Notes: a model not told the origin generated them from the sequence alone. Counted from the stretch's first letter, positions 1,298 through 16,652 are shown. The stretch: DNA of 20,000 nt from Malassezia furfur (GCA_052055015.1 JBQJIT010000020.1), one strand, 5' to 3'. Numbers and translations: made by a program.

Positions 1298-2582
1298 TTA
1301 GATCTTCGAAAGGCTGGCACTGTTGTCGAGGTGCGCCGTCAGATCCGTGGTCAAGAACTCGCTCGGCTTCTTCGCGCGCACCTGCTGCGAGAGGTAGCGA
1401 CGCGACAGGTCCACCGCCTTGGGGTCGAGCTTCGTGAGCTTCTTTGCCTCGTCGGCCAGGAGCTCGTCAATGTACTGCGGCGTAATCTTCTTGCCGTCGA
1501 CGGTGCTCGCGCCGTGGAAGACCCACTGCCAGAGCGAAATACGCGAAATCTCGGCCGTCGCAGCGTCCTCCATCAGGAAGTTGATCGGCACACAGCCGAG
1601 ACCGTGCACCCAGTTGGCGCAGTAGGCAAGCAACGCCGAGACGTTGGCGCGCGCGCCCTTCTCGGTAATCTTACCGGTGACGTTGGGGTTGAGCAGGTCG
1701 AGCGCGGTGACGTTGACCTCCTCGCGGCGCACGTAGTACTGGTTGGGACCAATCATGTACTTGTCAAAGATTTCCAGGGCAATCTTGACCAGCGCGGGGT
1801 GCGCCACCCAGGTGCCGTCGTGGCCGGCCTTAACCTCGCGCAGCTTGTCGGCGCGCACCTTCTCCATGGCGGCGTCGTTGGCCTTGGGGTCGTCCTTGAT
1901 CGGGATCTGCGCGGCCATACCACCAATCGCAGCGACACCACGCTTGTGGCAGGTCTGGATCAGCAGGTTCACGTAGGCCTGCATGAAGGGTGCCGTCATG
2001 GTGACGTCACCACGGTCCGGCAGCACGGCGCTCTGGTTGTAGCGCTGGCGCTTGATGAACGAGAAGATGTAGTCCCAGCGACCACAGTTGAGACCAGACG
2101 AGTGCTCGCGCAGCTCGTAAATGATCTCCTCCATTTCAAAGGCGGCCGTGATGGTCTCAATCAGCACGGTGCCACGGATCGTGCCGCGGGGCATGCCGAT
2201 GTAGTCCTGCGCAAAGTTGAACACGTCGTTCCACAGGCGCGCCTCGAGGTGCGACTCCATCTTGGGAAGGTAGAAGTAGGGGCCGTAGCCGTTCTTGACG
2301 AGCTGCTCGGCGTTGTGGAAGAAGTACAGACCAAAGTCAAACAGACCACCCGAGATCGGCTTGCCGTCCACGAGGAAGAACTCCTCGTTGAGGTGCCACC
2401 CACGGGGACGCACAATCAGGGTGGCAAGCTGGTCCGCGGGCTTCAGCTTGTACTCCTTGCCGTTCGACTGCTTAAAGTCAACGCGGCGGTTGATGGCGGC
2501 GTTCAGGTTAACCTGGCCGTCGAGGTTGTTCGCCCAGGTCGGGGAGTTCGAATCCTCAAAGTCAGCCATGTACGTGTAGGCA

Positions 2583-2614
<32 letters not shown>

Positions 2615-2899
2615 GTCGACCGGGCCGGTGATCTCGACACGGCGGTCGCGCAGACCCGGCGCAGGCTTAGCACCCATCCAGGTGGGGTCCTCACGGATGT
2701 GGGCCGTCTGCGGCAGGAAGTCGAGCTGCTTGCCAGCGTCCAGCTCAACCTGGCGCGCCTCACGGGCACGCAGTCGCTCCTGGCGCGTGCTCTCGAAGAT
2801 ACGGTGCAGCGTCGCCACGAACTTGATCGCCTCGGGGGTGAGGATCTTGGCGTGCTCGCCGAGCACAGGGGCAAGGATACGAACACCTTCAACCGACAT
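1298..2899 (-). CDS. MLS1: Malate synthase A (glyoxylate cycle), 533 aa, probably peroxisomal
   Basis: Hallmark motifs [75 protein letters not shown] and [12 protein letters not shown]. The C-terminal SKI is a PTS1-like tripeptide. No intron is needed. Confidence 0.98.
2049..2140. repeat. 92-bp perfect direct repeat shared with 215..306 (inside the two malate synthase genes)
   Basis: cgcttgatgaacgagaagatgtagtcccagcgaccacagttgagaccagacgagtgctcgcgcagctcgtaaatgatctcctccatttcaaa occurs identically at 215-306 and 2049-2140. Confidence 0.95.
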
Positions 2900-3526
2900 G
2901 ATGTGTAGAGGTAGACGTTAAACCGCTCACACCGCTCTATTTCCTTATATTGCCCCGGCGTTCCGAACCTCACCCCGGCTCGGCGAGCCCCGCGCACCCC
3001 GCAGTCTGTGCGCCTCCCACCGAGAGGTTCTCTCGGGTGCTTGCACCAATCACAATAAGGGCACGGTGCAGATGTCCGGTTAGTTCCTCGCCAAGGCTGT
3101 GCCGGTCTTCCGGTTATGTCATGCTGAGCAAGTGATCAGGACTCGTTACTCAGCGCATGGTAAGCTGCGATAGCCACGCACGTTGCGCAATCAGCCGCCC
3201 CCAACTGCAGGACCAGGGGCTTATCTGCAGCTCAGGTATCACGAGAGCAGGCACGTTTTTTTGCGCAGACGCGTCAGCGCGGCCAAGCCCGGCTGTGATT
3301 GTAGGGAAATCGCGTGCAGTTATGCAGCTTCTAATTTCGAACGAAGTGTCCGCCTTTATCGCGATCTTGCTAGTCTTATTGGGATATGTGCCGCGCGATT
3401 AATTAGGCGTGCAATCTAGCAGGGGTAGGTGGCCTGTTTCAGTACCCCAGGGGAGATTGCGTGTCACTCTCTTCCTCGCACACGTCGCATTCGCGCGCTC
3501 GTACCTAGGGTACAGAGTACGCTGCG

Positions 3527-4510
3527 ATGGCACCAAAATCGTCGGGCTCCCCCGCGCGACCACCGTCCAAGAGGTGGTCGTCCATTATCAGCCAACCTTC
3601 CATCTTCCGCAAATCCTCGGCAGACAATACCCACCGCTTTTCCACGGTCGACCCGGCTGGTCCAGGTTCCGACGTGATGCGCATGTTTCGTCCAAAACGC
3701 TTCTTGTCGTCTGATCATACGCCTTGCGAGGATGTATGGGAGATCCGCTCTTCCTCGTGTTGTGAATTTGACCGTCTTCGAAAGAACCTGGCGCTGGACG
3801 ACGACCCGACCTGCCTCGAGTCGCTCTTTTGCCGTTTGATTGATTTCAGTTTGACCCCAGACCCACAAGAGAAGCCGGAGATCCACTCCGATGCAGAAAC
3901 GCTCTCTTTGAACGACGACGACCAGAGCATGGGCGACATGAGTCTGCCTTCGCCGTCGCTGGACGGTCCAAAACTGGGCACATATGTCCCGACAAGCACA
4001 AACACACCCATCATTATTGCACCCGAAGCGCCGCCCAAACCCCCGCGATCCAGCCTTCGACCTGTATACACCAAAACGCCGGCGATGCGCCCCATACTGA
4101 GCAAAATTCCTGCAATGGAGCTATCGCTTTCTCAGAGCAGCTCGCAGCGTGCTTCGCCAGCGCTTTCGGGACTTGAAACACCACCGTTGGAGCCCAGCCG
4201 GAGCGGTCCCTACCTCGGTGACTCGGGGCATTCGAGCCGTGGCACACTGCCAGGGCTTGACTCCATGCCCGAATCGGACTGGTATTCTGGGTTCATCCGT
4301 TCGTCGTCGTATGCGACACTTAGTGTGAGCCCAAGTGCAGACTGGTCGGCTGTGCGGCGACCTGAGCTGACTAGTCCGCTGCGCGAAAAAAGCGCTGCGC
4401 ATTATGCGCATGCATCCATGTCGATACCAGTCTCGGACGACTATCTACACGAAATTGCCCGGCTCGACACGCATCTCCTGGTGAAGCCGCCTCCTTTCGC
4501 TCGTGGATGA
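3527..4510 (+). CDS. Hypothetical Ser/Pro-rich, probably disordered protein, 327 aa
   Basis: Longest ATG-initiated ORF in the gap between MLS1 and the SAPS gene. It has low complexity and PxxP stretches (APEAPPKPPRS). I recognise no family. Confidence 0.6.
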   Translation: MAPKSSGSPARPPSKRWSSIISQPSIFRKSSADNTHRFSTVDPAGPGSDVMRMFRPKRFLSSDHTPCEDVWEIRSSSCCEFDRLRKNLALDDDPTCLESLFCRLIDFSLTPDPQEKPEIHSDAETLSLNDDDQSMGDMSLPSPSLDGPKLGTYVPTSTNTPIIIAPEAPPKPPRSSLRPVYTKTPAMRPILSKIPAMELSLSQSSSQRASPALSGLETPPLEPSRSGPYLGDSGHSSRGTLPGLDSMPESDWYSGFIRSSSYATLSVSPSADWSAVRRPELTSPLREKSAAHYAHASMSIPVSDDYLHEIARLDTHLLVKPPPFARG

Positions 4511-5072: not shown

Positions 5073-8000
5073 ATGTTTGTGCGTACCGACTGCGATAACA
5101 TGTTATGATGCTAACACGCCTACAGTGGCGTTTTGGCGTGGCTCCGGTGTCGACGCTGACCACGTTGCTGGAAAAACCTGATATTACTGTCGAGGATGTG
5201 TTGAACGAGCCCGACCTCTTGCAGGAATGCAAGTCGAATAACCACAAACTCGTTGCATATCTGCAACAGCCCGAGGTCCTCCAGAGGCTGCTTGACTACG
5301 TTATTGGCGCTGTGGAAGTGGAAGATGTCTCAGACAGTGCCAACCAGGAGAAGATTGCCTTCAAGTATGTCGCGGGTTATCGTCGCTTATACTAACCACA
5401 GATATCCCTACTTTGCTTCCGAGGTGCTTAGCAGCGAGATACCCGAGATTTCCCTGGTTCTGTTCCAAAACGCACAGGCGCTGCTTGCGCCCTTCTGGGA
5501 CAACTTCCTGTCCACGCCGTCGGACGCCTTTGAGCGGCCCATACCGCTGCACGCTCATCCTCTCACCTCGGCGACCTACGTTAAGTCAGAGGCAGGAAAT
5601 GCGGGCGACGAGAACGAGGAAAAGAAGCCGGAGGAGAAATCGACCGGCGAAACTGTCAAGTACTCGGGCCGTTCGCACGGTCCTGGGCATACGGTGCTGG
5701 CGGGCTACTGGTCCAAGGTGAACATGGCGCTGCTCGAAAAACACCCGCAGGAGATGCTGGCATTTGTACAGACGCTGCCGACCGCGGTCGAGGGACTCGT
5801 GTCCCACTTTGAGACGTCGTCGGTGGTCGACCTGCTGTTCCGCCTGATCCAGACGGAGGATTCCGTGCCGGATGCGGGCATCATCCAGTGGTTTGCTGAC
5901 AACGACCTGATTACGCGTATCGTGTCGCTCCTGTCGCCGCATGTCTCGACCGAGCAGCACAAGGCGGCGGCTGAGTTCCTCAAGGCGATCATCTCGCTGT
6001 CGGCACCCTCGCCATCGGCGCTTAACCAAATCACCATGCAGGAGACGTTTGGCGGCCCCGGTGAGATGCTCATGGGTGCCGGCGGTGTCAACAACCTGCT
6101 GGTGCGCGAGCTCGCGAGCGAGGAAACGGTGAACAAGATGACCTACTTTATGTTCGACTTTAAGCCAACATTTAAACCGTTTGCGAGCGGCAGCGGCTCC
6201 GAGGGTGCAGCGTCGCGCAAGGCATCGATGCGCGGCGCCTTGGACTCGTCGCTGCCCGCGCTGCGCGAGTCGCTCTCTTCCGACGAATCGGCTGTTGAGG
6301 AAGAGGACGATGACGACGACGAAGAGTGGCAGGTACGGCTCAGTTTCAAGAACCGCCGCATGTCGCTTGCGCAAGGGATCAACGGTGGCCGGAGCCCCGC
6401 GCACCGCGACTCGACAGCCACTGTGCGCCCGTCGGATTTGCGGCGCGACAGCATTGTGCGGCAGGGCCCGTCACAGGCGGCCATCACCTCGTCCTTCACC
6501 AACTGTGCCGGGGTGTTTATCGAGCTGATCCGCAAGAACAACAGCGACTACTTTGAACAGCATCTGTTTCACACGCTGCGCAACTATCTGCTCCTCCGAC
6601 AGCAGGAGGTTTCTGGGAAGCGCCAGCAAGAGCGCCTCGCGCAAAAGAAGGCCGAGGGAGAGTCGGACAAGCCGGACCTGACGCTGGAAGATCTTCCATT
6701 TGAGGACGACGACGACGTCGAGGGCATGGAAGAAGCCATGGCCGAGGTCGCCGAAAAGATGGGCATCGTCCACCTGGGCCCACTGCTCCACATTCTCTCC
6801 AGCAGGATACCCGATTTGCAAGAGATGATGAAAAGCCCCAAGCTGGCAGTGCCGTTTGTCTCCACGACGCTGGGCCAGATTGAGCCGCTGACGCAAACGC
6901 GCTGCTGCATCGCGGAGCTGTATGCCGAGATGCTTCACTGTTCCAACATGGTCCTGCTTAATCGCGAACCCAATGTCGGGCCGCAGTACTCGCCTACCGG
7001 CACGCTGCTCGGCGGCATCGAGGGCCTCCAGCGGCTTGCACGTGCGCTCCAGGGCGACGACGGCGGACCGCTGTTCGACTCGAACGAGTCGAATAGCAAC
7101 GCGGCGCAGCCCAGCATGTCCCAGCCCGAGCTGCATGTTGAGTGCGAGGATGACGATGCGCCGCCGCCCACGGCACCAACGACTTCCGTATCCAGCGACC
7201 GGCTGGCTGCGCCACAGCCAGGAAGCACGAGCGGGCACAGCAGCGAGACCGGGTCGTCCGACTCGGAGGCCGACCAGGCCACGGATGACGAGGACGCCAA
7301 GAGCATTGCGTCGGCGCTCTCAAGCATGTCGCTGGCCGACCTGACGGCGCAGTTTGCGAGTCGGCCACCGAGCGTCGACGACGATCATCTATATGCAACG
7401 GCTGGCGACTACCTGAAAAAGCAGTTTTACGACTTCCAGGTGGTGCCGACGCTCATTGAGCTCTTCCTGAACCACCCGTGGAACAACTTCCTGCACAACG
7501 TCGTTTACGATATCGTCCAGCAACTCTTCAACGGCGATATGGACGCCGGCATCAACAAGAAGCTCACCATTGCCACGTTCGAGCAGGCCGGGCTCATCGA
7601 CGCCATTCTCGAGGGCTCGCGGCGCAACCAGGAGTCAAGCAGCCAGCTGCGCCACATCCGTCTCGCGTTCATGGGCCATCTCAACCTGATCGCCGAAGAG
7701 GTCATCAAGCTCCTCGAAAAGTACCCCGCAGCCGTGGGCGAAAAGGTGAAGAACTGCTTCCCCCAACCCGACTGGGACACATTTGTGAACGACGAGCTGC
7801 GTGTGTCGCGTGTCAAGGAGGCCATGCCGCTCGCCGGTGGCCGACCCAACGCCCACACCAGCAACGAGCAGAGCTGGGGCAAGGACTCAGACAACTGGTA
7901 CGCGGACTCCGAAGGGAACAACACCTTTGCACGCTACCTCTCGTCACAGATGCGCAACGAGTCCACTGAAGACGAGGCCCAGGAGAACGACATCCTCGCC

Positions 8001-10259: not shown

Positions 10260-10349
10260 GACTTTATAACTCAGTTGGTTAGAGTACCACGTTAACAACG
10301 TGGAAACGGAATTCCGTGGAAGTCCCCGGTTCGAGCCCGGGTAAAGTCA
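10260..10349 (+). tRNA. tRNA-Val(AAC): tRNA-Val (anticodon AAC) with a probable 16-nt intron at 10298-10313
   Basis: Acceptor stem GACTTTA/TAAAGTC with discriminator A. D arm ACTC-AGTTGGTTA-GAGT. Anticodon arm CCACG-TT-AAC-A^C-CGTGG. Variable loop AAGTC. T arm CCCGG-TTCGAGC-CCGGG. The insert ACGTGGAAACGGAATT sits at the canonical 37/38 position. Confidence 0.92.
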
Positions 10350-10352
10350 CTC

Positions 10353-10370: not shown

Positions 10371-13131
10371 CTATTTTGGAGCGCGCGCCTCGGCGAACAC
10401 GTGTTTCCAAGCCAAGAGAACTTGGAGGGTATCACGATCGGATGGATCGTCCTGGACTTGTGGATGCTTTTCTTGAGCATGAATCCATTCATAGAGATTG
10501 TTAGAGATCACATTCACGGCCTCTTTTGCATAGTCTTGTGGGCGCGCTACGCCGGTGTCCAGCAGCCATTCGGCATACTCCAGTTTGCTTTTCCGGCACT
10601 GCTCATTGGGGAGCGGGAATGTGGCCGAGCGCGAAAAGAGATGTTGAGCCCAAAGGAACCGAGGCATTGCGAAGGCTTGCAGCGCGACCGCAGGGTTGTG
10701 CAATTTGTCCGAGGGAAGGAACAGGATATTCCGCAGGTTTTGCAAGAAGATATATGCCCCTCCGCAGTCTTCCAGTGCAGGGGCAGTCTCGTTTGGCGGA
10801 GAGATACAGACCAGTATTTGTTGCAAGGACGTCTCTAGCATCGATATGTCCCGCATGATCTGAATCTTTTCTTCCTCCTCGTGCAGTCGAATTAATGTCA
10901 CGAATAGAAGGAAAGCCCGCAGAACAAATTGTACAAGATCTGTCACCATAGTCTTGACCTCGTCCGAGACCGTGATGCGGTTCAAGATGCCGTTTCGGAG
11001 AGAAGTGAGTCGTGCGTGCAGCTCCAGCATGTAGGTGCTCACAGGAGATTTGTTCGGATGACCCGCCGGTGCCGCTCTTGCCTTCTCGAGCTTGAACCGG
11101 GACATACGTGCCAGGACGCCCAACAACTCGGCTTGGACCGACCGGCACAGTGGATCCATCAGATCCTGACGGAGCATGCGTCGTGCTGTTTGCTCCCATT
11201 CCAACGCCTGCTCGGAAAGAGCGTGGAGAGACGCGGAATCGGTTCGCAGGCTCTGTAAAAAGGCGACCAGTGCGCTTATCACAGCCGCATTTTGAAGTTG
11301 CTGACGAGGCGGTTGTGGCTTTTGGAGCATGTACACCATGTCGTCGCGCGAAATTTGATCACGCAAGTCAGCCAACAAAGCGACCATCGCTGAAGAAAGC
11401 GTCTCGCCCATCCTGCGCGTCAGCCGCTCATCGGCGTTACATGCACTAGACTCTGTCGTAGCGATGCGCATCACAACGCAGGTCAGCGCAGGCATCTCTG
11501 ATGCGCTACTAGGGTTGGACAACACGGAGTGCAAAGATTGCCGTCTCTCCCCCAGCTCCTGGGTCACAGTGCGCAAATAAGACTGCTCAAGCTCACCCAG
11601 CAAAGAGAGCACCGACTTGGGCCAATCTTCGAAGTTGGTCGGTACAGACGACTCGTCCGTCAACAGTGCAATTCTTGCAAAAAGTTCCTTGAAGGTAGTC
11701 AGCAAACGAGGGTAGGTCGAAATCACAATGAACCGCCAAAAGTCGGACTCCTCAACGCATTCATGCACAACCATGCGAAAGTTGCGCGCAAAGGACGTCC
11801 ACAACAGCTCTGTCGGTTTTTCGCGCAGTTGCTTCGTAAGTGCGTCAACGTACATGCATCAACGACTCCAGGAGCGTCGCATCCGACCTGCTGGTATGCT
11901 TGGAACGCAGTACATACTCGAGCAGGTTGATCTTGGTAAATATAGGTGCCATTTCGTCAACGACCAACGAGTGCAGCTGCGCCCATACGCCTGAAGTCCA
12001 TTGCTGCAGAAGCTGTGCATCCTCGGCCACCATTGCACGGCCCGGAAGTTGGTAGTGCATCGAAAGCAGCGCCTTGAATGAAAACGAAGGCGGCTGGGTT
12101 TTTCCGAGCCCCTTGCCAATGGTATACAGATCCAAGGCCGAGCGGATGCGTTCAAGCAAAACGGCGTTGAGGTCTTCAATAAAACTCTCGACCAAGTGGG
12201 CCAGCTGGTGGCGATGCTCGGCGGCCTGAAGTGCAAGACCAAGCAGCACGGGCGACAAGTGTCGAATGCCGTACAATAGCGTATTTTCGACTTGCTCCTG
12301 AAGCAGCTGCGACGCAACCGGCAGCAGCGCCAAGTGAGGCGCGAGAAAGTCGAGCTGCGCGCAGTCCTCACGCAGTTTTTTGTCCAGCTCGTCCTCGTCT
12401 TTCCATGGCTCCAGAAGCTGCTCCAAATTCTCCAGAGTGATGCAGGTAGACAGAATGTGGGTAGCACGTTGCTGCATCGCTTTGGGATCCTGTGAGGAGC
12501 TCGTGGCATCTGCGCCAAGAATGGTATTCATCTGAGACGACAGGCGCATGCACAAAGCAACCATCTCTTGTGCATGCAATACGAGCTCTTCTCTCTCCTG
12601 CAATGCTTCGAGGCGCGTCTGGTTTTCTTCGATGCGTCGCAGCGAGGACGTCACATTCGAGCGCACACTGCGTCAGTTCCCGCCCACATACGATTTCACG
12701 CGATGATCGAGTTTGCTAAACTCTTGCAAATTATCCGACACAGCATCGCGGAGGGGCGCTACATTGGTGACGCGCTCCAAGAACTGCCCCGAATGCAAGG
12801 TGATCTGGTGTGAGATGCGCACCTACCAAACCGTGAATATCTTGGTCGACCTCGGTGATGGACACATTTAGGCGACTCAGTGCCACGCGCATATCTGTGT
12901 CGACCGAGGCGACACGATTCGAGACGCCAAGCGGATTCTCGGATGCCGAGGCGGGTTCCTGGGGCCGTGCCGGCGAACCCAGAAACTGGCTGGCATACGT
13001 CTGTGCATCAAAGTCATCGCGCAGAAACGCGGCGTGATCTGTGTAAGCAAAATCCACCTACCAAATGAGCCAGATGCGGGCTTTGCAGGTCCCGAGCTTT
13101 TCTCGGAGAGGGCCGCGCTCGTGTCGGCCAT
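10371..13131 (-). CDS. COG5: Conserved oligomeric Golgi complex subunit 5; 5 exons, about 889 aa
   Basis: Exons 13131-13062, 13038-12827, 12804-12692, 12667-11854 and 11831-10371. Introns of 23, 22, 24 and 22 nt (13039-13061, 12805-12826, 12668-12691, 11832-11853) join the ORF-track fragments into one frame. The N-terminus FLRDDFDAQTYASQFL...ALSRLNVSITEVDQDIH and the C-terminal SPVSTYMLEL...RAFLLFVTLIR...KIQIMRDISMLE resemble COG5. Confidence 0.82.
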
Positions 13132-13311
13132 GGCAGCGCACCTCCGCAATCGTCGAACGCGGAGCGTGCACGCGCACGGACTGGGAATTATGCAAGATGA
13201 GTTGGACCCGGTAGCGCCTTGGGCAGCGGTAGAGCAGGGCCACCGATGGACGGTGCCTAGGCAATGTCTATGAGCGTGGTTTTGGGGGAGTGTAGTCTAT
13301 GCCGAAGTTTC

Positions 13312-13815
13312 CTAGGCCTGCTTCGACCGGCTTTCAATCTCGCGCTGGATCAGCTCCTCCTGCCACTTCTGGATTTCCCTCTCGCTGGCAACGATCCCGC
13401 GCTGGCCTAGCTCACGCATGGCGCGGTTACGAATTAGGTTGTCGTGGGTACGCTTCTCGTACTCAAACCGCTGCAGCGCAGTCTCAGCCGCAAAGACGAG
13501 CCCAATCGAAGCCGCTGCGTGAGTACAGTTAACGTGCCTGACATAGTCAAGAACGCTTTGAACGCAAGCGTTTGGCGCCTGTGGTGTCAGTTGACCGACG
13601 TACCGGAACGAAGGGAAGATGTGGTGCGACGCAAAGACACCGGTGAAGCCGACAAAACCCCACACCAAGGCTCCGCGAATGCCCGCACGCTACATGAGTC
13701 ACGTATGATCATTACACACCACCTGGAGATCGTGCGCGTTTTTGATGTTCTCTTTGTCGAATTGCCTTCGCTCACGGTTAGTGAGTAAGCCAGACGACGA
13801 CCCCTTCGTGTCCAT
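13312..13815 (-). CDS. Small two-TM fungal membrane protein (weakly Rcf2/Rcf3 N-terminal-like); 4 exons, about 141 aa
   Basis: Exons 13815-13720, 13689-13604, 13578-13538 and 13514-13312. Introns are 30 nt, 25 nt and 23 nt (the last is GC-AG). Spliced product: MDTKGSSSGLLTNRERRQFDKENIKNAHDLQVRAGIRGALVWGFVGFTGVFASHHIFPSFRRQTLAFKAFLTMSAASIGLVFAAETALQRFEYEKR...SKQA, with two hydrophobic helices linked by PSFRRQTLAFKAFL. Confidence 0.72.
13515..13537 (-). other. 23-nt non-canonical GC-AG spliceosomal intron
   Basis: GCACGTTAACTGTACTCACGCAG. The donor GCACGT parallels the common GTACGT, and the branch ACTCAC-GCAG matches other introns here. It is the only nearby donor that restores the frame. Confidence 0.7.
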
Positions 13816-13915
13816 CGCGTTGAACGTAGATCCGATCGGAGAAGCAATTAAGGGCCGGAAGCACGAATGTGGAGAAAAATGCGCCGAAAAAATTCTCCCT
13901 GAAGCCTGCATCATT

Positions 13916-14775
13916 ATGGGCAGCTCAAAGAGCAGTGCGAGTTCGAGCAGCGTGGTGGTTTCGCCAGGTAGGTGAGCTGGTTCTGATACAGACGCTCTGC
14001 GACTGGTGCACGCCTTTCTCTATACACACGCGAAGCCGAAACTTGCGTCCAAGCTCGCGGACCAGTACCCTAAGCTGCATTTGGAGGAAGATGCGAGCCG
14101 GGCGGAGGAGCTCTCGAATGCGCTCGTGCACACGGTGACGAGTGCGCTGGCGGTCCCGAACTCCGAAATTTCGCGTATTTTGAGCGGGGAGAAGAAGAAG
14201 GCGCGTAAGTCGGAGGAAAAGGAGTCCAAGAAATCGAAGAAGGCCAAGGTGCGTGTGCGTCATTGACCACAGAAGAATGACGACGTACTTGCACCCGTGG
14301 TCGAAGAACCCGACACGGCAAACGAGTCTGCCATGCAGGTAGATGTCACGGAAGCGTCTGCGCCAGCGTCTGCGCCTGAGGCAGTGACCGAGGTTTCGGT
14401 GACCGAGTCGCAGCCGTCGGGCGAGACGGTTGTCACAAAGACCGTACAAACCGAGGCGCCTAAGCCCTCCAAGAAAACGAAAACACCCGGAGAGCGCTTC
14501 CAACGGGTCAAGTCAGACCAAGCGACGTTCCTGGATGACCGTTTGCGGGATATGAGTTATGCTGCAAAGGTACGTGATGCGCTGATACAGTCCGGTGCGG
14601 GCGACTACGGCGCGCGTGCAAATGCCGATCTGATCGTTACGCAGGGCAAGGCGTTCACGAAAGAAAAGAACAAAAAGAAGCGCGGGAGCTATCGCGGCGG
14701 GATCATTGACCAGGGTTCACAGTACGTGTATACACTCACACCAGCTCCATCAAATTCACGTACGACGATGAGTAA
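13916..14775 (+). CDS. SRP40: SRP40/Nopp140-like nucleolar protein; 5 exons, about 255 aa
   Basis: Exons 13916-13967, 13992-14248, 14273-14569, 14591-14721 and 14745-14775. Introns are 24, 24, 21 and 23 nt. The spliced C-terminus RFQRVK...DDRLRDMSYAAKSGAGDYGARANADLIVTQGKAFTKEKNKKKRGSYRGGIIDQGSHSIKFTYDDE* is the SRP40_C domain. The N-terminal LRLVHAFL is LisH-like. Confidence 0.92.
14570..14590 (+). other. 21-nt in-frame, stop-free intron in SRP40
   Basis: GTACGTGATGCGCTGATACAG has the consensus donor and the same CTGATACAG 3' end as intron 13968-13991. Removing it deletes VRDALIQ from within the SRP40_C domain. Confidence 0.75.
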
Positions 14776-14781
14776 GCTGCG

Positions 14782-16652
14782 TTATGCGGTGCCCTCAGTG
14801 CGTTCGCCGTGGGCGACCGCCTCGTCCCACATGCCGATCTCGAGCCGGGTGGCCCTGTGTGAGTAGTTGGCACGTACGTATTCCATATCTCTTGGAGATG
14901 GTCCGCCTCTTCCACCGAAGGCATCACGCGTGCGGCACAGCGCTCAAGCATGTCCAGGGTGGATCGCACTGCGCCCTGGAATTCGTCCCCGCCGTACTCG
15001 TCCAGCCAGGCCTCATAGCTGGGGTCAAGCGCGCTACTCGGGGTAGAGTGCTTCTGGCGCTGCTCCTTGAGCCAAAGGCCTACCTCGGCGTACCCAAACG
15101 CGCACGATGCGACTGACACGAGCAGGGGTAGAATGCCTTCGCGGGCCGTGTCCATCACGTAGCGTGTGTACGCCATGGTCGCGCGGCTCTCTTCGGTGCG
15201 CTCGAGTTCGTTGCGCGAAATTCCGACACGCTCGCACACCATGGCATGCACGTGTGTCTCATCAATGGCGGCCCGCGAAATGGTGAGGTAGTCGCGCAAA
15301 TCATCTGGCGAGCACGTCGGATCGGACGCCGCGGCGGCCCACACACGGGCATAGTGCTTGAGGTACAGGTAGTCTTGCCGCATGAACCACACAAACGCCG
15401 CTTTGGACAGCTTGCCATTGCACATGCGTGCCACAAACGGATGGCGCGTGTACAAGTGCCACAGATGCCACGAACGCGCAATGAGCCTGGTCGTGAGCGG
15501 CGCCGCACACCGCGCCGAGTGCTGAGGAATGCCGCGCGGCATGACGTGCGCGCCATGGTTGAGCGGGCCGGCGCCCTTGCCGAGGTCCTCGATGCTGTTC
15601 TGCAGCGCCTCTTGCAGAAACTGCAGGCCATGGGCCACGGCGATCCGCAGGGGACGTCCGTGCGCATGGGCCGCACAGATCGCGGACGACAGCGTACACC
15701 CCGTGCCGTGCGTCGCGCTGGTCGCGATGGTAGGTTTGATGAACACGGTCGTGTGCTGCGTCGCGGATTCGTACAGTACATCTACTGTGTAGGAGGGTGG
15801 ACCGACATCGGGCAGGTTGCGTCGCAGCATACGCACGTCGTTGGGTCCGTGCACAAGAAACACGTCGAGTTGCGGCGCATGGAAAGCAGAGGCACCGAGC
15901 ACCTGCGCAATGTCGCTGCGCTCGTTGGGCTCGACGCGTACCGAGAGCGCTACCGTGCCGTGTGCATTGCGCCTCGTCGACACGCGCGTGTCGCTAAAGC
16001 CGGCGATTGCTTCGTCGTCGGTGTACAGGGGGAGCGACACGCCCGCATCCTGGAGCGCCTCTTGCAGATCGCTGTGCGTGATGGGAACATGCCCGCCCTT
16101 GACGAGCACGTTGGCGACGCCCAGCTTCGCAATGGACTGCGCCGAAGCCATCATCTTGGCAAGGTCAGTCGAGGCCGCCGGCGGCGTTTCGCCGGCGCTC
16201 TGGAGTATTATCTCGGTCTCAGGTAGGTTGGGGGTAAGCAGTGTACAGAGGGGAAAGAGTCCCTCGATCAGCGCGCCAACTGCGTCGCGCTCGAGCAGCA
16301 GTGAGCCCGAGGTCGAGACCATCACGGGGTCCAGCACGACCGGCGCACCGTGCTGCTTCTGCGCCATGGCGATGCACTGGATGACTTCGCGGACGATGGG
16401 TGCATTGGCGAGCATTCCAATCTTGATCGCGTCAATGCGCACATCCGTCGCAACCGAGTCGAACTGCGCGCGCACGAATGCCGGATCCGGGGTGTGGACG
16501 CTTTGTACGCCCTGGGTGTTTTGGGCGGTGAGCGCGGTGAGCACCGACATGCCATACGTCTGCAGAGCAAGAAACGTCTTCAAATCCGCCTGGATTCCGG
16601 CGCCGCCACCAGAGTCGGAGCCCGCTATGGTCAACGTGCGCGGAAGCGCCAT
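14782..16652 (-). CDS. THI20: Hydroxymethylpyrimidine(-phosphate) kinase fused to TenA/thiaminase II (THI20 family); 2 exons, about 615 aa
   Basis: ATG at 16652 gives [26 protein letters not shown]. Kinase motifs are [40 protein letters not shown] and [11 protein letters not shown]. TenA motifs are [20 protein letters not shown] and SCAFGY. Removing the 23-nt intron 14855-14877 restores the TenA ending [17 protein letters not shown]...TA* (TAA at 14784-14782). Confidence 0.93.

Follow-up and report, generated by a model that had tools for sequence, protein, structure and literature searches.

Predicted spliceosomal introns of 21–30 nucleotides retain standard fungal splice signals in four neighboring Malassezia genes

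Introduction

What interrupts the reading frames of four closely spaced genes at positions 10371–16652 of a 20,000-nucleotide (nt) stretch of Malassezia DNA (GCA_052055015.1, JBQJIT010000020.1; the whole stretch is referred to below as the window)? On the coding strands, the stop-to-stop open reading frames (ORFs) of these genes are interrupted at 12 places, and each of the 12 breaks corresponds to a segment of 21–30 nt with a donor-like hexamer at its start and AG at its end. An initial annotation had read most of these segments as part of a population of 21–25 nt spliceosomal introns in a fungal nuclear genome, and the analyses reported here support spliceosomal-type introns of that length. 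Overall, we consider it highly probable that the segments are genuine U2-type spliceosomal introns, of a kind ordinary for Malassezia. Their splice signals are the standard fungal consensus, and only the spacer between them is minimal.

Results

Removal of the short segments and conservation of the spliced products

When the 12 segments (11832–14877) are removed, four single open frames result, encoding a COG5-like protein, a small membrane protein, an SRP40-like protein, and THI20. The continuity that the initial annotation had claimed for these genes was thereby recovered, along with the lengths it had listed: 23/22/24/22 nt for COG5, 30/25/23 nt for the small gene, 24/24/21/23 nt for SRP40, and 23 nt for THI20. 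Eight of the 12 junctions are bridged by uninterrupted alignment with homologous proteins: SRP40 junctions 1–4, small-gene junctions 1–3, and the THI20 junction. At a ninth, the Pfam COG5_C profile continues over COG5 intron 4; Pfam families were searched exon by exon rather than on the spliced proteins.

The SRP40-like gene (13916–14775, plus strand) has five exons, 255 codons plus a stop, and a Pfam SRP40_C domain. Its product, spliced from window coordinates, was aligned with 11 homologues, including two from basidiomycetes outside Malassezia. Introns 1 (13968–13991; 24 nt, donor GTAGGT, branch CTGAT) and 2 (14249–14272; 24 nt, donor GTGCGT, branch TTGAC) each contain an in-frame stop; the first junction is contiguous in the Malassezia homologues, and the second is supported by the homologue alignment. 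At intron 3 (14570–14590; 21 nt, donor GTACGT, branch CTGAT, phase 0, no in-frame stop), 7 of the 11 homologues show no insertion, among them the M. sympodialis protein, which was curated with RNA and peptide data, and the two non-Malassezia sequences. SRP40_C is also contiguous across this junction, with profile positions 1–25 at the end of exon 3 and 30–68 in exon 4. Removing intron 4 (14722–14744; 23 nt, donor GTACGT, branch CTCAC, phase 2) gives a C-terminus that agrees with 7 of the 11 homologues (six identical, and P0008 with one conservative change). Separately, a second AG lies 3 nt downstream of the intron 2 acceptor (14249–14275, plus strand), a possible tandem acceptor that could yield an isoform one residue shorter.

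The small membrane-protein gene (13312–13815, minus strand) comprises four exons and 141 codons, and only its three-intron model aligns gap-free with homologues P0119 and P0122; an alternative reading, open without splicing, aligns with neither. Intron 1 (13690–13719; 30 nt, donor GTGTGT) contains an in-frame stop and is absent from P0119. At intron 2 (13579–13603; 25 nt, donor GTACGT, branch CTGAC), the spliced reading alone fits both homologues, while removal of intron 3 (13515–13537; 23 nt, donor GCACGT, branch CTCAC) reproduces the junction residues of P0119. This third intron is of the GC-AG type, the sole canonical boundary pair that keeps the frame: as GT-AG alternatives we considered a 19-nt and a 28-nt version, both of which break it. 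P0119, the M. yamatoensis orthologue, shares 64% identity with the small protein and is labeled HIG1 domain-containing in UniRef, a label unconfirmed by Pfam, which assigns neither P0119 nor P0122 to a family. Opposite the GC-AG intron, a 28-nt stretch of the plus strand (13519–13546) also fits the donor/branch/AG motif, probably by chance from near-palindromic signals (GTACGT being its own reverse complement). The small gene and SRP40 are divergent, with 100 nt between their start codons.

THI20 (14782–16652, minus strand; HMP-P kinase and TENA domains) consists of two exons and 615 codons plus a stop, and is identified by Pfam Phos_pyr_kin and TENA_THI-4 as well as by homologue alignment. 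With its single intron removed (14855–14877; 23 nt, donor GTACGT, branch CTCAC, phase 2), the C-terminus can be aligned to the conserved end found in 12 of 13 homologues; read without splicing, it matches none of the 13. A metagenome scan with THI20 returned 84 pattern matches, none of which was confirmed. SRP40 and THI20 are convergent, with stop codons only 6 nt apart (14773–14784), so that their 3′ ends must overlap.

The COG5-like gene (10371–13131, minus strand) has five exons that splice into 889 codons plus a stop in a frame open from ATG to stop. Pfam places COG5_N in exon 2 and COG5_C in exon 4 (profile positions 4–136) and exon 5 (143–186). The profile thereby spans intron 4 (11832–11853; 22 nt, donor GTACGT, branch CTTAC, phase 0), which the codon-usage frame test described below also supports. 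Introns 1 (13039–13061; 23 nt, donor GTAGGT, branch CTTAC, phase 1), 2 (12805–12826; 22 nt, donor GTAGGT, branch CTCAC, phase 0), and 3 (12668–12691; 24 nt, donor GTATGT, branch CTGAC, phase 2, with an in-frame stop) are predicted by ORF joining, the intron motif, and the frame test, and removal of the first connects the ATG exon with the COG5_N exon.

Codon usage, motif frequency, and points against the intron reading

Two further analyses, of codon usage and of motif frequency, bear on all four genes. First, a codon-usage score trained on the other genes of the window was used to ask, for each exon, whether the frame dictated by the junctions scores best. For 14 of the 16 exons, among them all five of COG5, the top-scoring frame was the predicted one. 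Second, we defined a strict motif (GT[AG]NGT, followed by [CT]TNA[CT] located 1–5 nt before the terminal AG, for a total length of 20–26 nt) and searched the 40 kilobases (kb) formed by both strands of the 20 kb window. It occurs 10 times, each time at a proposed intron and on the sense strand, while 500 first-order Markov simulations gave a mean of 1.23 matches and a maximum of 8 (0/500 at 10).

Several observations weigh against reading the segments as introns ordinary for the genus. The motif statistic is partly circular because these very introns supplied the motif, and it is given less weight; the independent tests are ORF joining, homology, and codon usage. The codon-usage test missed two exons, of 41 and 52 nt, both covered by homology. 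For COG5, no homologue emerged among 8000 scored candidates (exon 5 as query, longer proteins), a PDB search with exon 4 gave no match at E up to 1, and Pfam found no COG5 match in exon 1, the 37-residue exon 3, or the first 60 residues of exon 4, which leaves COG5 introns 1–3 as predictions from frame restoration and codon usage. SRP40 intron 3 keeps the frame and contains no stop, so that its retention would be tolerated. Finally, a printed length mode of 21–25 nt for the genus was not found in the published passages considered, which give means or medians around 30.

Anatomy of the introns and what it asks of the spliceosome

Together with two longer introns of a SAPS gene (47 and 37 nt; see below), the window holds 14 introns, 11 of which measure 21–25 nt, as first proposed; their mean length is 26.3 nt and their median 23.5 nt in this one 20 kb window. 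The donor follows G[TC]RNGT in 14/14, and 13 introns are GT-AG against one GC-AG. The four donors named in the initial annotation (GTAGGT, GTATGT, GTACGT, and GTGCGT) are all present, but its list was incomplete and lacked GTGTGT and the GC donor GCACGT. A branch motif, [CT]TNA[CT], likewise occurs in all 14, ending 3–9 nt before the terminal AG and placing the branch A 5–11 nt from the 3′ end; in the 21–25 nt class (n = 11), the branch A falls at intron position 16–19, 5–8 nt before the 3′ end. The acceptor is always the first AG 3′ of the branch A (14/14). The donor hexamer lies only 4–8 nt from the branch pentamer, and a polypyrimidine tract would not fit. The introns indeed amount to little more than a donor, a short spacer, a branch motif, and an AG, as had been described, with a GC content of 51% vs 60% for the window.

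Retention of a single intron leads to a premature stop in 11 of the 14 cases, so that splicing errors would be exposed to messenger RNA (mRNA) surveillance. In the other three, retention would extend the protein by seven in-frame residues (SRP40 intron 3) or alter its C-terminus (SRP40 intron 4 and the THI20 intron).

The simplest reading of this anatomy is a canonical U2-type spliceosome acting on spacer-minimized introns. Specifically, these introns would have lost almost all of their spacer while keeping the standard fungal signals, and the spliceosome would act on them by intron definition, i.e., by recognition across the intron. U1 and then U6 would pair at the donor and U2 at the branch, the 3′ site would be picked by proximity to the branch as the first AG, and failures of splicing would be exposed to surveillance.

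Such small introns could instead be real and yet need a modified or streamlined spliceosome, with altered small nuclear RNAs (snRNAs) or with early-assembly factors lost or changed. The steric argument for it is reasonable: when the branch A follows the donor G by only 15–18 nt, the U1 and U2 particles could not occupy the intron together in the usual early complex, and the 4–8 nt gap and missing polypyrimidine tract point the same way. The usual donor consensus is GTAAGT, and position +4 of the donor, which differs here, is never A in the 14 introns. In Paramecium, introns of the same size are spliced efficiently by a mechanism that the authors, in the passages available, state is not known (PMC8997360). 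Against these points, the donor and branch motifs are ordinary fungal consensus, and one machinery appears to handle both sizes because the 37 and 47 nt introns of the window carry the same signals. Moreover, no snRNA lies within the 20 kb window, and we found no literature on the splicing mechanism of tiny introns in Malassezia or on the Malassezia spliceosome. We therefore regard as unlikely both a modified spliceosome and, more narrowly, an altered early assembly, e.g., a sequential rather than simultaneous engagement of U1 and U2 small nuclear ribonucleoproteins, or bridging factors that have been lost or changed; the canonical spliceosome is retained as the simplest reading.

SRP40 introns in relatives, and errors in deposited proteins

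The SRP40 region of the window shares 88% identity with M. furfur SRP40, followed among named matches by eight further Malassezia species; by this similarity, the window is placed in a Malassezia close to M. furfur. Beyond the genus, a metagenome scan with the SRP40 alignment recovered seven fungal loci. In three of these (L003, L005, and L006), introns of 63, 64, and 80 nt, respectively, are found exactly where the 21-nt SRP40 intron 3 lies, likewise in phase 0. Since longer introns hold this site in three fungi, at least SRP40 intron 3 appears to descend from an old fungal intron of ordinary size that stayed at its site while shortening to roughly one-third of its length. The same three loci carry a second SRP40_C intron (52, 58, and 50 nt), positioned 11 nt 5′ of where the 23-nt intron 4 lies in the window; intron 4 may have slid or may be independent. 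The remaining four loci (L001, L002, L004, and L007) are intron-free in the domain, hence uninformative on intron length. In L005, the donor at the intron 3 site (contig positions 1585–1648) is apparently GC (GCATGT).

Deposited proteins of the genus diverge at these sites. At the SRP40 intron 3 site, extra residues are found in M. furfur (7), M. equina (9), and Malassezia sp. CBS 17886 (11), which would imply read-through of in-frame introns of about 21, 27, and 33 nt, respectively. At intron 4, the C-terminus of the M. psittaci protein corresponds to a read-through of the intron, and the M. furfur protein is two residues short at the junction. For the small membrane protein, gene call P0123 keeps the 30-nt intron 1 as 10 extra residues. 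These padded or read-through proteins bear out the expectation of the initial annotation that gene finders mis-annotate such genes, and default minimum intron sizes would break or pad genes in any annotation of this species.

The insertions at the SRP40 intron 3 site raise an alternative, namely that some of the segments are facultative and that the 21-nt intron is partly kept, giving an isoform seven residues longer. Its stop-free retention and the insertions in the proteins of three Malassezia species are what this alternative would predict. The insertions are most simply annotation errors, however: neither the curated M. sympodialis protein nor the two non-Malassezia homologues contain one, and the SRP40_C profile leaves no room for it. 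In addition, intron 3 carries every splice signal, from donor through branch motif to acceptor, and its 3′ end is identical to that of SRP40 intron 1. We consider facultative splicing of these segments improbable.

Errors in the assembly, frameshifts in genes undergoing decay, and translational recoding are hardly credible explanations of the segments, given that all 12 breaks carry, on the sense strand, one and the same arrangement of donor, branch, and AG, their lengths cover all three classes modulo 3, removal restores the conserved protein sequence exactly at eight junctions, and the genus is known for such introns.

Remainder of the window

The two longer introns belong to a SAPS gene and are predicted from ORF joining and signals: intron 1 (5079–5125, plus strand; 47 nt, donor GTGCGT, branch CTAAC) and intron 2 (5365–5401, plus strand; 37 nt, donor GTATGT, branch CTAAC). 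The SAPS domain begins 3′ of both, and its profile gives no check on them. The intron-free genes of the window are two malate synthase genes, a thiolase, an adaptin, and a partial bystin. Both malate synthase genes (1–1092 and 1298–2917, minus strand) are arranged in tandem on the same strand and share 79% identity over 355 residues; the first runs out of the window. Between the malate synthase and SAPS genes lies a 333-codon ORF without a Pfam match (3509–4510, plus strand), followed by ~550 nt of lower-GC non-coding sequence. A transfer RNA (tRNA) gene, tRNA-Val (anticodon AAC; 10260–10350, plus strand), is ~90 nt long and has a T-run after it. Its length implies a tRNA-type intron of ~17 nt located 3′ of the anticodon, unrelated to the spliceosomal introns.

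Discussion

Very short introns are already on record for Malassezia at the genus level, and the novelty of those described here is small. The initial annotation had warned that novelty might be partial, and on the passages available it largely falls. A review mentions "very short introns" in Malassezia genes (PMC7426719). The curated annotation of M. sympodialis lists 5350 introns with a mean of 30 base pairs (bp), 99% of them supported by RNA sequencing, while an earlier, homology-only annotation of the same species had 3462 introns averaging 65 bp (PMC5389616). For M. restricta, the average is 37.2 and the median 30 bp, and minimum-intron settings of 20 and 15 were used (PMC9241646, PMC6473144). 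Intron density is comparable, with ~1.2 introns per gene in M. sympodialis (5350 in 4493 genes) and 14 in ~11 genes here; the mean of 30 bp in M. sympodialis compares with 26.3 here, the latter from one 20 kb window (PMC5389616). As here, GT-AG and GC-AG introns were both accepted in these two species, and gene finders needed a minimum intron of 10–20. They are other species, with RNA support in M. sympodialis, whereas the introns described here are predicted from sequence, and the published passages give means and medians without an analysis of branch position or mechanism.

Outside the genus, the closest parallel in size is Paramecium tetraurelia, whose introns measure 18–33 nt with a mean of 25 (PMC8997360). 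As described in the passages available, Paramecium resembles the present case in length class, in recognition that is necessarily across the intron, and in unspliced forms that mostly expose stops, but its splice signals are described as weak, whereas both the donor hexamer and the branch pentamer show strong conservation here (PMC8997360). The two lineages are unrelated, so intron shortening would have been independent. Exceptions below ~30 bp are listed for ciliates, microsporidia, and dicyemids, to which a 2026 study adds myxozoans (PMC13644364). According to the available text of that study, the exception groups have medians of ~22–26 nt and compact genomes and, unlike the fungus considered here, are parasites or ciliates; the same text contains no occurrence of Malassezia. 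Ordinary basidiomycete introns, such as those of Cryptococcus neoformans (mean 63 bp; PMC8476143, as given in the portion available) and of the three metagenomic SRP40 loci, carry the same donor and branch consensus as here and, at 50–80 nt, are two to four times as long.

Malassezia is a neglected case of sub-30-nt introns that retain strong canonical splice signals. Agrobacterium-mediated transformation is reported, in the passages available, for M. furfur and M. sympodialis (PMC5654937), so that the limits of spliceosome assembly on tiny introns would be testable there by spacer-length mutation. Were the altered early assembly, regarded above as unlikely, to hold, Malassezia would be the first genetically tractable fungal model for the recognition of introns below 30 nt.

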